From positions 2,656,001 to 2,720,000 of the forward strand of contig OY761158.1 of the NCBI GenBank assembly GCA_963664405.1: 64,000 nucleotides of DNA, read 5' to 3'. The position numbers were made by a program, and so were the translations under genes. Position 1 is the stretch's first letter. Each line of letters begins with the position of its first letter. The notes under the pieces are model-generated. The model did not search any database and was not told where the DNA came from. It worked only from the letters and a program-made list of their open reading frames with translations. This document shows positions 50,617 through 55,311 of the stretch, in pieces. The stretch is from Thermoanaerobaculia bacterium (lineage in GTDB: Bacteria; Acidobacteriota; Thermoanaerobaculia; Multivoradales; Multivoraceae).

Positions 50617-50930
50617 GCAAGATCGGCCGTAGCGAGTTCCTTCTGCTCTCGAACCGGGTTCGGACCGGCACGCTCCAAGGATTCGAGGAGGTGCTGGGGA
50701 GCGTCGGTCGGGACGAGGTGGACGCCCCGAAGGCTCCGGCGAGCGTCGACTCCCACTCGTCTCAGCGGTCCTCGGACCGGTACGCGCCACGCCCCCGCTC
50801 ACGGAAAGTCGTCCACCAGGATCTCTTCAAACCCGGCACGGAAACCTCGACAGGGATCCCTGTCCCTACCAGAAACTCCATCCGCGCAGCAGTTTCGGAC
50901 GTCACACTTGCCAGGAGTATCCTTGGTGTG

Positions 50931-51706
50931 ATGATTCGTCTTCTAGGAGTATTGCTTCGCTCAGTAGTGGCGGCACTCCAGACTCGCCGCCAGCTCGCCC
51001 TCGAAAACCTGGCTCTTCGGCAGCAGCTCTCAGTGCTTCTGTCGGCGCGGCGGCCGTCTTTGACCAACCTCGATCGGGTCTTCTGGACCATTCTCCGGCG
51101 CCGATGGAGTCATTGGACGCACGCGCTCGTGATCGTGCAGCCCGAGACCGTCGTCCGCTGGCACCGGCAGGGATTCAGGCTGTACTGGCGATGGAAGAGC
51201 CGAAATGGCAGCGCTGGACGGCCGAAGATAGACCCGGAGGCCCGAGCCTTGGTTAGAAGGATGAGCTTGGCCAACCCGTTCTGGGGCGCACCGAGGATTC
51301 ATGGCGAGCTCCTCAAGCTAGGGATCGAGATCTCGGAGACGACGGTCGCCAAGTACATGCCGAGGTCGCGCCGGCCACCCTCTCAGTCCTGGCGAGCATT
51401 TCTGGACAACCATCTCAAGGATCTGGTCTCAATCGACTTCTTCACGATCCCCTCGGCGACATTCCACGTCCTTTTCGTCCTCATCGTCCTCCGCCACGAC
51501 CGCCGGCGCATCCTTCACTTCAACGTTACCGAGCATCCCACCGCGGAGTGGACCGCCCAGCAGATGGTTGAAGCGTTTCCTTGGGACACAGCACCGCGCT
51601 ATCTCCTCCACGATCGCGATGCGGTTTTCGGAAACAACTTCCGGTCGCGTGTGGCTGGGCTCGGAATGGCCGAGGTGCTCATAGCACCACGATCGCCTTG
51701 GCAGAA
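50931..51706 (+). pseudogene. DDE transposase, N-terminal part
   Basis: NPFWGAPRIHGEL, SIDFFT, YLLHDRD, APRSPWQ. Confidence 0.87.
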
Positions 51707-51709
51707 GGG

Positions 51710-53803
51710 CTACGCTTCACACTGCACCTCCTCCGTAGGGTTCGGTTCGACGTCGAGGCGGCGCCGTCGTTTCGAGAGTTTTCGGCCCTGCATTTTGACG
51801 GGCGGGTCGTCGCCGGGATGCTCGTAGAGGCACTCGTTCTTGTCGTTGTAGGCATGGGCACGCAGCAGGCCGTGGTTGCGCCATGTCTTCACCGTGTGGG
51901 TCGCGACACCCAGTAGGTCAGCCATCTCTTCGAGGGTAAGCATTCCCCCCTCACGCAGTCGGTCGTACCTCTTCTTGATGTCGTAGTCACGGCGCAGGCG
52001 CCGGACGATGCCGGCGTGAAATCGTTTGCCCTCTCCGGAGAGATGGCCTCTGTCGTTGAGGATGCTCGCAATCTCGGCCTCGGTGTAGTCATCAAGCAGG
52101 GTATCAATCTCGGCAACGACCTGTTTCGAGGTTTGGCGTAACTCCCATGCTGTCGGCGGAATGGGCAGTTTGAGACTTCGTGTCGCGCCACCTCGGAAGC
52201 GGACACCGACAACGATCTCGTCGCCCTTCGTCAAGGTGACGTCCTCGATGAGCAAGCGCACCATGCGCTTGCGCTCGCGTTGAGGCGTCTTCGGGTCGTT
52301 CCACAACCGCGGGAAGTCGGTGGCGAGGGCGAGGATCTCTTCTCGTTGCTGGTCGCCGAGCTGTTGGTGATCTTGCTGGCGGCGCTGCTCGAGCTCCTCC
52401 TGTGCGTCGTGCAGCCCGCGCAGCCTCTCGTTCCACTCGGCCTCGAGGACATCCACCACGAGGCGGTTCCCCGGATCGACCTCCATGAAGCGACGCCGAG
52501 CCAAGTCAGCCTCCTGTCGAGCTCGCTGTACGTGCTGGCGCCGCAGGGAATCGGCCTCGTGGATCCGTGCATCGAGCTCGACCTGGACTTTCAGTGCAAC
52601 CTCCAGAGTCACAGGCGTAACCGTCTCCACAAGCAGCTCTCCGATGGCCCGATCGATGCCCTTGCCCGGGATCGACTGACACTTGGGTGTCGCGGTGTCG
52701 ATGCCCTCGCGCTGGCAGACGTACTCGGGCCACTGAGTGCCCCTGCGCGTGTGATAGCGGACCGTCATCCGATGGCCACAAACGCCGCAGAGGACCAAGC
52801 CCTGCACCAGCGCTGGCCCCTCGCGCGGTGGGCTCTTACGCCGGTCTCGGCCGTGGGCCTGGGCGTTGTCTCGTAGTCGTCTCAGGTTTTCTTCGAATCG
52901 TTCCCAAGGAATGTAACCGGGGTGCGCGTCGAGCAACAGCGCGGTCCACTCCTCCCGCGGAAGCGACTTGACCTCGACGGTGCCGTTGACGCGCTTTTGC
53001 GTGTGAGTGCGACCGAAACAGAAAGCACCTGCGTAGCGGGGATTGTGCAGCACCCTCAGGACGCGCCAGTGGCGCAGCGACTCCCACAGCAGCTCTCCCT
53101 TGTGGGGGCCGAAGCGCGGCCGGCGCGGAAACCGCAAGCCTTGCTCGCGGAAGTGTTTGACCGTCGCCGAGGCCGAGCCCGTACGCTCGAAGGTCTCGAA
53201 CAGGTGCTCGAAGCTCCGTTGGACCTGGCCGTCGGGATCTAACACGACGTTGCCGGCCGGGTCGTAGAGTAGGCCGACGGGTAACGGGGTTTGCAGCGCA
53301 CCTCGGCGCGCCTGATTCAGAATGCCTCCGCGCAGCCGAGCCCGCATCACGTGAAGCTCCGCCTCGCTCATCGTGCCCTTGAGCCCGAGCAGAAGGCGAT
53401 CGTTGAAATCACTCGGGCTGTAGACCCCGTCCTCGTCAAGGATCAGCGTGTCGGTCAGCGCGCAGATCTCCAGCAGTCGATGCCAGTCCGTGCTATTGCG
53501 TGCCAGGCGCGAAACCTCCAGCCCGAGAACGATCCCGGCTCGGCCCATACCGACCTCGCCGACGAGCTTCTGAAAGCCCTCGCGGTCGACGCTGGAGGCT
53601 GCGGACTTACCCAGGTCCGAGTCGATCACGAGGACTCGCTCGATGGGCCATCCCATCGCCACCGCGCGCTCTCGCAACGCGTACTGCCGTCTCGTGCTCT
53701 CCGTATTCTCGAACACCTGGCGCACGGTCGACTGGCGAACGTACAGGTACGCATCGCGTCGCAGGTGGCTTGGGGTCACCTTCTGGTGGGCGCTTGCGCT
53801 CAT
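51710..53803 (-). CDS. Large serine recombinase (resolvase, recombinase, zinc ribbon, coiled coil, C-terminal HTH)
   Basis: YLYVRQST, EVSRLARN, LHNPRYAG, GLVLCGVCG...YVC. Confidence 0.95.
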   Translation of the reverse strand: MSASAHQKVTPSHLRRDAYLYVRQSTVRQVFENTESTRRQYALRERAVAMGWPIERVLVIDSDLGKSAASSVDREGFQKLVGEVGMGRAGIVLGLEVSRLARNSTDWHRLLEICALTDTLILDEDGVYSPSDFNDRLLLGLKGTMSEAELHVMRARLRGGILNQARRGALQTPLPVGLLYDPAGNVVLDPDGQVQRSFEHLFETFERTGSASATVKHFREQGLRFPRRPRFGPHKGELLWESLRHWRVLRVLHNPRYAGAFCFGRTHTQKRVNGTVEVKSLPREEWTALLLDAHPGYIPWERFEENLRRLRDNAQAHGRDRRKSPPREGPALVQGLVLCGVCGHRMTVRYHTRRGTQWPEYVCQREGIDTATPKCQSIPGKGIDRAIGELLVETVTPVTLEVALKVQVELDARIHEADSLRRQHVQRARQEADLARRRFMEVDPGNRLVVDVLEAEWNERLRGLHDAQEELEQRRQQDHQQLGDQQREEILALATDFPRLWNDPKTPQRERKRMVRLLIEDVTLTKGDEIVVGVRFRGGATRSLKLPIPPTAWELRQTSKQVVAEIDTLLDDYTEAEIASILNDRGHLSGEGKRFHAGIVRRLRRDYDIKKRYDRLREGGMLTLEEMADLLGVATHTVKTWRNHGLLRAHAYNDKNECLYEHPGDDPPVKMQGRKLSKRRRRLDVEPNPTEEVQCEA

Positions 53804-54087
53804 GCGTGGTTCTCCCGTACATGGCCGAGAGCCATCGCAGCCAACACGTTGATCAGATCCGCGCTCGTATCGTGAGGCAGCGCGGACGGCCTGGCTATCT
53901 CGGCGGACGGTGCCTGCGTCGGCGCGGGCATCTTGGACCCCTGTTCAACCCAAGCGGCCAGCCCTTGTCGCAGGAGAACGGCCAAGCCGAACCGAACCGA
54001 TAGGAGCTGCCGCTTCGCCGCATGTCCTCGGAGCTCCTCGTAGCGAGCGACATGGGCCGGAGCGTTCTGCTGGGGTGTCGCGCTCAT
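53800..54087 (-). CDS. Small accessory protein of the recombinase element
   Basis: RYEELR...GLAVLLRQGLAAW...LINVLAAMAL; 4-nt overlaps with both neighbours. Confidence 0.75.
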   Translation of the reverse strand: MSATPQQNAPAHVARYEELRGHAAKRQLLSVRFGLAVLLRQGLAAWVEQGSKMPAPTQAPSAEIARPSALPHDTSADLINVLAAMALGHVRENHA

Positions 54088-54551
54088 GGCCGGCGTTTTT
54101 TTTCCTGGCGAGCCAGGGCTCGCTCAATGCTGCGCGGATGGATCGAGATGCCAAAGCGCTTCTGCACCCACTCGGCCAGGGCGGTTGCATCTGCGTCCGG
54201 CTCCCCCTCCAGCCTGTCGTGCAGGGCCTCGACGACCTCCTCGGATAGCTTGTGGGCGCGGCGCGGCCCCGGCTTTCTTGGCAGCAACGCGGGTAGGCCG
54301 CCTTCTTCGTAAACCACCTGGGCGTGGTAGAAGGATGGGCGCGACAACCCGAAGCTTGCCGCGCTCCGGCTCACCGTGTGTCTGTCCACCCGGACACGGC
54401 GCAGCATCTCGTACTTGACCTGCACGAGGTCTCGAGGGTCGAAGAACTCGCTCGAGGTGAACAAATCGTCCGAGACCTTCTCCGGCTGGGGATGAAGGCA
54501 CCCTCGTTGACGGAGGGCCTCGGCTTTCGGGTCGGGTCTGCGTCGCGGCAT
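54084..54551 (-). CDS. Helix-turn-helix protein of the recombinase element
   Basis: FFDPRDLVQVKYEMLR, FGLSRPSFY, KPGPRRAHKL, IHPRSIERAL; GAGGAG RBS. Confidence 0.82.
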   Translation of the reverse strand: MPRRRPDPKAEALRQRGCLHPQPEKVSDDLFTSSEFFDPRDLVQVKYEMLRRVRVDRHTVSRSAASFGLSRPSFYHAQVVYEEGGLPALLPRKPGPRRAHKLSEEVVEALHDRLEGEPDADATALAEWVQKRFGISIHPRSIERALARQEKKRRP

Positions 54552-54579
54552 GATCGTCTCCTCATGGAATGTAATTCTA

Positions 54580-54607
54580 ATTATACCTCTCATGGATCCT
54601 CTGTCAA
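54580..54607 (-). promoter_or_regulatory. Consensus sigma-70 promoter driving the HTH-ORF-recombinase operon
   Basis: TTGACA (54607-54602), 16-nt spacer, TATAAT (54585-54580). Confidence 0.8.
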
Positions 54608-54766
54608 GGGGTGTCCACCAAGAGAGTACCGATAGATCGTGCATTAAATTGGCCTATCTCTACACTCCTGGTCACACTCCGGCACTCTTCCCGACATAAT
54701 TGTGATTACATTCACGGCATAATCTCCTTTACGCACGGTGCCCCTCAACCGTCCTCACGCAGGTCT

Positions 54767-55061
54767 TCATCGCTCGCTCTCCCGGGTCAGCTTGGCGAGC
54801 TCGAGCAGGTCGGCCAAGCGGTACATCGATCTGCCTGCGGAGATGACAACCACGGGGTCCTCGGCCACCGCACTCGTCCAACGCGCTGGAAGGGAGCGTA
54901 GCTCCTCGCATTCATCCAGGTAGAAGACCCGGTCCTCGCCCCAGCACTGGCGATAGTGAGCCAGCTCGTACTCACGCCCCAACAGCGGGTGGAACGGATG
55001 GGTTACCCGAAAACGTCGTTGCTCACAATCTGTATCGGGTGCATTCGACCATCGAGCCCAA
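54767..55061 (-). CDS. DUF5372 (Y4bD/Y4pK-like) protein; the frame extends to the att core without its own start codon
   Basis: FRVTHPFHPLLGREYEL...WGEDRV...SLPARWTS...DP...GRS..R.ADL. Confidence 0.72.
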
Positions 55062-55311
55062 TCCCTATGCTGAGCGCGTCATCGGCTCCATGCGGCGAGA
55101 ATGTCTCGATCACGTTATCGTGCTGAACGAGGCCCATCTCCGCCGGATTCTGCGTTCCTTCGTCACCTACTACCATCGCTCAAGAACCCATCTCTCCTTA
55201 GACAAGGATGCTCCTGAGGCACGAGAGGTGCAGGCTCCGAGGATGGGACGCGTGGTGGAGTTGCCCGAGGTCGGTGGGCTCCATCACCGGTACGAACGCC
55301 GGGCGGCGTAG
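55062..55311 (+). pseudogene. DDE transposase, C-terminal part
   Basis: NPYAERVIGSMRRECLDH...GGLHHRYERRAA. Confidence 0.87.

Follow-up and report, generated by a model that had tools for sequence, protein, structure and literature searches.

A stretch of 64,000 nucleotides from a Thermoanaerobaculia bacterium (contig OY761158.1 of assembly GCA_963664405.1, positions 2,656,001 to 2,720,000; hereafter the window, whose own coordinates are used throughout) carries on its minus strand, at 51705-55061, a mobile element whose first gene encodes a member of the DUF5372 family. The body of this gene (54767-55060, minus strand) consists of 97 codons and a stop, and is without a start codon of its own. 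The locus thus raises the question of how, and in which state of the element, such a gene could be translated. A sequence-only reading of the window had proposed that the ribosome-binding site (RBS) and the start codon are supplied only when the two ends of the element are joined, as they would be in an excised circle. The analysis described here led us to a similar view, and we consider it probable that DUF5372 is an excision-completed gene in a serine-recombinase element which moves through a circle, and that its product is a cofactor of the recombinase.

The start of DUF5372 in the integrated and joined forms

The four genes of the element all run in one direction on the minus strand, in the order DUF5372, helix-turn-helix (HTH) protein, small open reading frame (ORF) and large serine recombinase. 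The DUF5372 body matches its Pfam profile (PF17342) with 74.1 bits against a cut-off of 25 (E 9e-21, profile positions 1-73 of 78), and profile position 1 corresponds to the V of the motif VTHPFHP. In the integrated element, the frame containing this motif (HPFHP at 55000-54986) meets its first upstream stop, a TGA (55081-55079), six codons inside the insertion sequence (IS) that serves as host, and no ATG, GTG or TTG lies ahead of HPFHP within the element. Such a start within the element is lacking in each of the five copies present in this genome, all of which score above the Pfam cut-off. In two of them, copies C and D, the host flank by chance provides an in-frame TTG 8 codons upstream.

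Joining of the ends in silico at their shared TT brought GAGG (51730-51727), a 6-nucleotide (nt) spacer, a GTG (51720-51718) and four further codons into frame with the body, and the stop codon of the recombinase gene (TAG, 51712-51710) falls inside these four junction codons. The joined product is a protein of 102 amino acids (aa) in all five copies. The sequence-only reading had placed the RBS and GTG within the last codons of the recombinase gene and had described the integrated frame as open to the core of the attachment (att) site; both statements, together with the host TGA, the missing start and the length of the product, were borne out, with exact coordinates. The joined frame also remains open for 47 further codons into the 3' end of the recombinase gene, back to a GTG at 51861, from which 149 codons are open. 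In the integrated copy this corresponds to a 60-aa ORF at 51679-51861 (minus strand), which shares its frame with the junction start and overlaps the 3' end of the recombinase gene; we take it as chance openness in GC-rich DNA.

The mobile unit and its ends

The whole element (51705-55061, minus strand) measures 3357 bp with TT at both ends and 3355 bp as a circle. The five copies in the genome are 99% identical and have the same ends as the one in the window; each begins with TT and a common left arm and finishes with a common right arm and TT, and their flanks are mutually unrelated. The crossover dinucleotide of the left end lies at 55060-55061 (minus strand), its second T being the first base of a W codon in the DUF5372 frame, and that of the right end lies at 51705-51706 (minus strand), as placed by the copy ends and by the skip joint described below. 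The left arm of the element's att site, attP (P', 55040-55059, minus strand), contains 16 nt followed by TGCA (55043-55040), a spacing that is mirrored in the right arm, and at the same time this arm provides the DUF5372 body with its codons 1-7 (W..SNA). The right arm (P, 51707-51734, minus strand) is at the same time the translation start region of DUF5372, and consists, on the minus strand, of GGAGGAGG (51734-51727), TGCA (51726-51723), the GTG start and the four codons.

The element interrupts the transposase gene of the host IS, the 5' part of which is found at 50691-51704 (plus strand) and the 3' part, with the Pfam rve_3 domain, at 55062-55311 (plus strand). Rebuilding of the empty site showed that this DDE transposase gene was broken within the codons for SPWQNPYAER, between Q and N, and an uninterrupted copy of the host IS was found elsewhere in the same genome. 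Contigs from all four public sequencing runs (4/4) contained a form lacking 3355 bases (the skip, between 51704 and 55060), and 2 bases at its joint are compatible with either side. The exact copy ends and this skip with its 2-base overlap therefore define a mobile unit of 3355 bp whose crossover takes place at a TT core. This is as expected of a serine recombinase, and so are the mirrored arms next to the TT of either end and the overlap of no more than 2 bases that remains at the empty site. Same-ended copies at unrelated sites, and an empty version of the target, are likewise what characterises an IS-like element.

The 3355-base skip was also considered as evidence of excision and was rejected, as in run X5 the contig with the skip has a T at 51557, by which the second, intact IS copy is recognised. 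In run X7 the corresponding contig has the window's own C at 51557 and lacks the element, and the insertion may be missing from a related strain. Among the copies in the genome, C (C1:3059614-3062970) and D have the left flank in common and not the right, while B and E (C1:3326269-3329622) have in common the left flank and, on the right side, 9 bases; when rebuilt, the 'empty site' of copy C proved to be a chimera of an IS21-like and an IS3-like half. These partly shared flanks and the chimeric site suggest exchange between element copies or rearrangement after insertion.

The junction rule in homologous elements

A scan of one genome per species was used to assemble homologous loci, and the best 80 of 231 stretches encoding a DUF5372 relative were analysed. 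In 67/80 an HTH gene and a recombinase gene follow downstream on the same strand; the remaining 13 comprise seven that are truncated at the end of a contig, five lone DUF5372 frames and one with a recombinase on the opposite strand. The lone frames (L039, L052, L056, L068 and L073) are followed by at least 5 kb in which neither HTH nor recombinase is encoded, and are probably remnants of decayed elements. The hosts belong to Planctomycetota, Acidobacteriota, Actinomycetota, Spirochaetia, Myxococcota and several proteobacterial classes.

Junctions were rebuilt for the 58 loci with a complete recombinase, namely 53 foreign elements and the five copies of the present genome. A generic inverted-repeat score did not discriminate the ends and was replaced by an anchored arm rule, in which the right arm reads GAGG-TGCA-NN-(A/G)TG-N11-dinucleotide and the left arm reads the same dinucleotide-N16-TGCA, so that TGCA lies 16 nt from the crossover on either side. 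This rule was derived from within-assembly copy pairs of three other lineages (Accumulibacter L062/L063, L054/L055 and L083/L086), and contigs that start or stop at element ends agree with it, as does the skip joint of the present genome.

Ends could be placed in 56/58 loci, with the same crossover dinucleotide at both ends (TT in 52/56, AT in 2, CT in 1 and GA in 1). The rebuilt junction was in frame and open to HPFHP in 55/56 resolved loci, which is the outcome that the sequence-only reading had anticipated for homologues, and the start codon stands at the same place, as ATG in 32 and GTG in 24, in front of 47 distinct junction peptides among the 56 loci. Changes in length between the left end and HPFHP amount to -3 (4 loci), +6 and +9, with a single +1 (L053). 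The sequence-only reading had also compared the four-gene layout with that of the NGR234 y4bA-y4bD repeat, and the symbiotic plasmid pNGR234a indeed carries the same four genes and obeys the same junction rule. In RefSeq, its DUF5372 gene is annotated to start at a GTG that lies eight codons ahead of the H of HPFHP.

Searches for the joined form

A degenerate junction motif had 3 matches in metagenome contigs, one of which was real. This contig (L099, 1068 nt) contains the recombinase C-terminus, the right arm, TT, the left arm and a full DUF5372 ORF from the junction ATG, and is evidence that DNA in the joined form, be it a circle or a tandem pair, does occur somewhere. The other two matches fell in an unrelated, AT-rich gene and were rejected as chance. 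Viral contigs scanned with this motif gave 0 matches, and the joined form was not found in the present genome. A recombinase gene lay directly upstream of DUF5372 in 0/80 genome loci, and contigs of runs X1, X2, X5 and X7 over 51500-55260 showed no end-to-end joint, a search that is uninformative since contigs drop rare forms. Among RNA runs, none contained this stretch.

A junction-type N-terminus was seen in 0/270 database proteins (P0002-P0271). The public gene calls for these proteins start anywhere from 1 to 128 residues before HPFHP, many running into host flank. The N-terminal annotation of the family is systematically unreliable, the starts chosen by gene callers being arbitrary because the true start of DUF5372 would sit 3.3 kb away.

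Coding use of the codons upstream of HPFHP

The stretch from the left arm to HPFHP was analysed at codon level in 40 distinct left arms. Stops were present in 0/40 in the DUF5372 frame, as against 29/40 and 27/40 in the other two frames. Within the F-R-V/I-T codons the first two positions do not vary, whereas the third is free; upstream of HPFHP the differences at codon positions 1/2/3 number 80/74/136, and single-base codon changes comprise 78 synonymous versus 52 non-synonymous. Judged by this signature, the codons upstream of HPFHP evolve as coding sequence, and translation must therefore start upstream of F-R. An own start ahead of HPFHP in homologues had been named beforehand as the observation that would speak against a junction start; in 34/46 distinct left ends there is no in-frame ATG, GTG or TTG before F-R-V-T, and in 21/46 there is no start whatsoever before HPFHP.

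The same data bear on the idea that DUF5372 is a dispensable accessory gene in decay, which in the present element lost its start through a change from TTG to TGG at the L codon, the junction start being functionless. In close relatives the codon in question is indeed often TTG, a single base away from the TGG of this element, and the element has spread to five copies without an internal start. However, the frame is intact in 5/5 copies, the absence of stops and the synonymous excess extend over the 40 left arms, and most lineages are without TTG at the L codon, so that TTG is not an ancestral, conserved start. Decay is thus a very improbable explanation.

Transcription, and the att site as an alternative

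A sigma-70 consensus promoter (TTGACA-16-TATAAT, 12/12 match; 54580-54607, minus strand) lies downstream of the DUF5372 stop and is directed to the HTH gene, the small ORF and the recombinase gene. Shuffled versions of the promoter region contained 0.4 sites on average. At the same place, between the DUF5372 stop and the HTH start, 31/45 distinct foreign elements have a match of 10/12 or better, while in controls taken inside the recombinase gene the promoter score was never above 8. The body of DUF5372, on the other hand, has no element sequence upstream of it, because the gene begins at the second base of the element. No promoter is formed at the joined ends themselves, where sigma-70 matches reach at most 6/12 on the gene strand and 8/12 on the opposite one. 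In the joined form, one promoter would read all four genes consecutively, much as the sequence-only reading had it: the promoter is at the predicted place, its layout is conserved and only joined ends would bring all four genes under it.

A different explanation would be that GAGG-TGCA-NN-RTG is kept for recombinase binding only, the start being a by-product of the att site, and that the integrated element already makes DUF5372, on transcripts entering from flanking DNA, by use of an internal or non-canonical start (TTG at the L of LSNAPD, GTG at V, or CTG and the like). The arms are indeed imperfect mirror images around the crossover, with TGCA at the same distance on both sides, and in one lineage, inserted in sense with an IS91-type target gene, read-in would be possible. 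Most lineages are antisense to their target gene, and read-in from that gene is therefore excluded for those. GAGG is kept in 35/43 distinct right arms, whereas CCCG, GGTT, GATG and others stand at the mirrored position of the left arm, a difference that speaks against binding only. The position of the recombinase stop relative to the junction start, compared in 37 lineages, is +1 in 11 (an ATGA overlap), +8 in 15, -11 in 8/37 (TGA over the Shine-Dalgarno (SD) sequence) and further upstream in 3/37; GAGG is thus maintained while the recombinase frame over it differs, and even where that gene has already ended. As read from these arrangements, the spacing of stop and start is the pattern of adjacent, coupled operon genes. 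Length changes preserve the frame. In addition, the 21/46 left ends without any canonical start before HPFHP include all five copies of the present genome, and as the F-R codons before V are protein-constrained, V cannot be a general start.

Several observations nevertheless weigh against a start supplied solely by the junction, and the first of them also favour the by-product explanation. An internal TTG or GTG is present in 12/46 left ends and a GTG at the V codon in 13 more, and most database gene calls use internal starts (57/120 at the L/M of LSNAPD and 15/120 at V/M-T); some members may therefore be translated while integrated too. GGTGCA in the right arm mirrors TGCACC in the left arm (N-A-P codons), so that part of the 'SD' and of SNAP is conserved as a recombinase-binding site. 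Since R-T-G belongs to the motif used to search for the right arm, the 56/56 start codons are not an independent count, and since one spacing is found in 49/56 loci the agreement in frame is largely inherited, with only few indels independent. L053, a locus from a metagenome-assembled genome, has a 1-nt insertion and is out of frame, the right arm of L078 is 2 nt longer, and for L058 no right arm was found with the end rule. L099 is the sole real joined contig, and possibly a tandem pair. Finally, as the joined frame is open to the GTG at 51861, the junction GTG is only a probable start of DUF5372. On the whole, we regard a mere by-product of the att site as unlikely, and a start completed at the junction as the reading to be preferred.

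The other genes of the element

The large serine recombinase (51710-53803, minus strand; 697 aa; Pfam Resolvase, Recombinase and Zn_ribbon_recom) has its domains in the order PF00239 (18-169), PF07508 (199-312) and PF13408 (334-389), and is 54-84% identical to 37 relatives. Residues R23, Q24 and T26 are invariant and S25 nearly invariant among 38 aligned family members, and from this motif S25 would be the catalytic serine. Its ORF is whole in the integrated copy, the crossover lying 4 bases beyond the stop; integration thus does not split the recombinase gene.

The HTH protein (54084-54551, minus strand; 155 aa from the ATG at 54551, which is preceded by GAGGAG) matches Pfam HTH_32, HTH_29 and HTH_28. 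Its NCBIfam matches are partial (E 6.5e-12 and 4.8e-08) and far under the family cut-offs. The protein is nearest to the N-terminal DNA-binding part of IS630/IS481 transposases, and occurs here in an element that targets transposase genes. The small ORF (53800-54087, minus strand; 95 aa) has no family match, overlaps each neighbour by 4 bases and keeps its position in many loci. A search of NCBIfam gave no match for either DUF5372 or the small ORF.

A possible role for DUF5372

The modelled fold of DUF5372 (mean pLDDT 77.6) has disordered residues 1-13, a four-stranded SH3-like barrel and two helices. Foldseek against the PDB gave 0 matches at E <= 0.001, with weak likeness to eS4/NdhS barrels, and a sequence profile search of the PDB gave 0 matches at E <= 1. 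A complex of recombinase and DUF5372 was modelled from paired alignments of 38 elements, in 3 runs and with 3 controls. The predicted complex scored 0.71 in the 3 runs and the best control 0.00; this mark is reached by 58/80 solved complexes and by 2/110 mismatched pairs, counts that apply only approximately here since own alignments were used. The runs had a contact agreement of at least 80% and a partner pLDDT of at least 69. The predicted interface brings residues 338-343, 394-413 and 482-541 of the recombinase against residues 21-26 (HPFHP) and 68-95 (the C-terminal helices) of DUF5372, and we take the recombinase side to be the zinc ribbon and the proximal parts of the following segment, which we read as the coiled coil. 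Verified recombination directionality factors (RDFs) are predicted to bind at the DBD2-CC junction of the recombinase in a virtual pulldown study (PMC12286644). From the model we infer that DUF5372 would be a cofactor at the junction of zinc domain and coiled coil, where directionality factors act, and among the functions offered by the sequence-only reading, 'directionality' is the one that fits this predicted complex.

Small SH3-like barrels often bind nucleic acids. The gene might accordingly be completed on joining and yet encode a protein that acts on DNA, such as a repressor of the operon promoter, a circle-maintenance protein or a factor for target choice; the barrel and two helices without an informative relative would suit this. 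That the binding of recombinase and DUF5372 is a model prediction is a point in its favour and one that counts against the cofactor, as does the poor fit of a classical RDF, which pushes toward excision, with expression in the circle only. The model interface, however, involves the invariant HPFHP and coincides with the known RDF site, while every control scored 0.00, and the HTH protein would be the more obvious regulator. A DNA-acting role is, in our estimation, decidedly unlikely. For the preferred cofactor role, a factor that is present only in the circle would make most sense if it favoured insertion or blocked further excision.

Proposed mechanism

In the mechanism that we propose, an IS-like element would move by means of its large serine recombinase through an excised circle. 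As attP lies inside the 5' end of DUF5372, integration would cut this gene in two: the right end would keep the RBS, the start codon and four codons, which follow the recombinase stop directly or overlap with it, while the other 97 codons would go to the left end, some 3.3 kb off, upstream of the only recognisable promoter, which faces away. In the circle, this promoter would read the HTH gene, the small ORF, the recombinase gene, attP and a complete DUF5372, the last being probably translationally coupled to the recombinase. With its start region split off by integration, DUF5372 would be made only by the excised form. By design logic, our preferred reading is that it would then make the recombinase favour insertion over any further excision, and would switch itself off once insertion splits its gene again.

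The anatomy of the split gene, its conservation and its coding signature are direct observations, and the split gene looks like a built-in sensor of the excised versus the inserted state. More tentative is the combined picture of a large, undescribed family of bacterial serine-recombinase transposons, in which the split DUF5372 is both a state sensor and a self-erasing, insertion-locking 'inverse' RDF and the element a parasite that homes to catalytic-motif codons of transposases; we think this possible, while not expecting that all of its parts will hold together.

Target genes

Rebuilt empty sites (flanks of L023-L096; own flanks 51690-51720 and 55045-55080) place the insertions in conserved-motif codons of other mobile-element genes. 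Sites antisense to the element are SPWQNPYAER, ARGNEKGRVER (IS21-like), RPRTNGKAERF and DNxxxER (IS3-like), that is, the run before the catalytic E of DDE transposases. In L054/L055, with the core AT, an IS110-type TGVYW motif was hit. L066, L067, L072, L080, L090, L094 and L095 lie, in sense orientation, in the CPxCGG zinc ribbon of an IS91-type gene, and an HNH-like gene is the target of the copies from Spirochaetia. The transposase family names given here to target genes are our reading of the motifs. Insertion into such codons would make this a clear case of a mobile element parasitising others.

Comparison with known systems

Large serine recombinases are prized for genome engineering because they are one-way. 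To our knowledge, the few known ways to reverse or steer them all use directionality factors made from the integrated state. If the proposal is true, a cofactor gene that is whole only when excised would provide a new, self-resetting logic for steering such a recombinase, and a function would be obtained for DUF5372, a family of 1229 clusters at 50% identity. One such RDF of a large serine integrase is gp3 of phiC31 (PMC5814800). Like RDFs, DUF5372 is small and element-encoded, is without a common fold and is predicted to sit at the junction of DBD2 and coiled coil. In contrast to RDFs that are made from the integrated prophage to trigger excision, DUF5372 could not be made until the element has excised; its role is then probably opposite to that of an RDF, or one of feedback.

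With regard to control by the state of integration, Tn4451 (TnpX) and Tn5397 (TndX) are excised by a large serine recombinase to a non-replicating circle, and Tn4451 has a circle-specific promoter for its recombinase, while integration of phage P2 separates int from its promoter in a split-operon control. The Tn4451 and P2 cases concern transcription of the recombinase, whereas here the coding sequence of an accessory gene is split; we know of no split accessory-gene coding sequence among Tn4451, Tn5397 and P2. Promoters at the circle junction are also found in IS911, IS2 and IS30. For the IS1111/IS110 family, promoters created at the circle junction are described in PMC11187229. As in these elements, joined ends would here switch on a function for the next step. 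However, instead of a -35 and a -10 box being joined, an internal promoter, an RBS and a start codon become connected to a coding body, and on the gene strand of the present junction the best promoter match is the 6/12 mentioned above, unlike the IS911/IS110 type.

Target choice has a parallel in ISEc21 of the IS110 family, which targets the DDE-motif codons of IS3 transposases (PMC11187229). Both elements thus use conserved catalytic-motif codons of other transposase genes as target, but ISEc21 depends on an RNA-guided DEDD enzyme, whereas the present family has a protein-only serine recombinase, and its various lineages target rve, IS21, IS110, IS91 and HNH genes.

A literature search, subscription journals and supplements aside, gave no paper on DUF5372, on the four-gene element family or on a start switch completed by circle formation, and a search on y4bA, y4bD, y4pH and y4pK gave nothing relevant. 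The sequence-only reading had held that such a switch was not known to be described. This stands insofar as no description was found, but the principle of splitting has a precedent in the archaeal SSV-type 'suicidal' tyrosine integrases (SSV1, pTN3 and pT26-2), where integration splits a gene of the element itself (PMC8371274). That review presents suicidal integrases as exclusive to archaea, and likens their effect to control by a directionality factor. In both systems attP lies inside an element gene that is whole only in the circle. In contrast to the suicidal integrases, however, the present element is found in bacteria, its serine recombinase remains intact and it is a small accessory gene that is split, of which only the start region and four codons are detached. 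Thus it is the combination of a bacterial setting, an intact serine recombinase and a split accessory gene from which only the translation start is detached that is new here, together with the element family itself.

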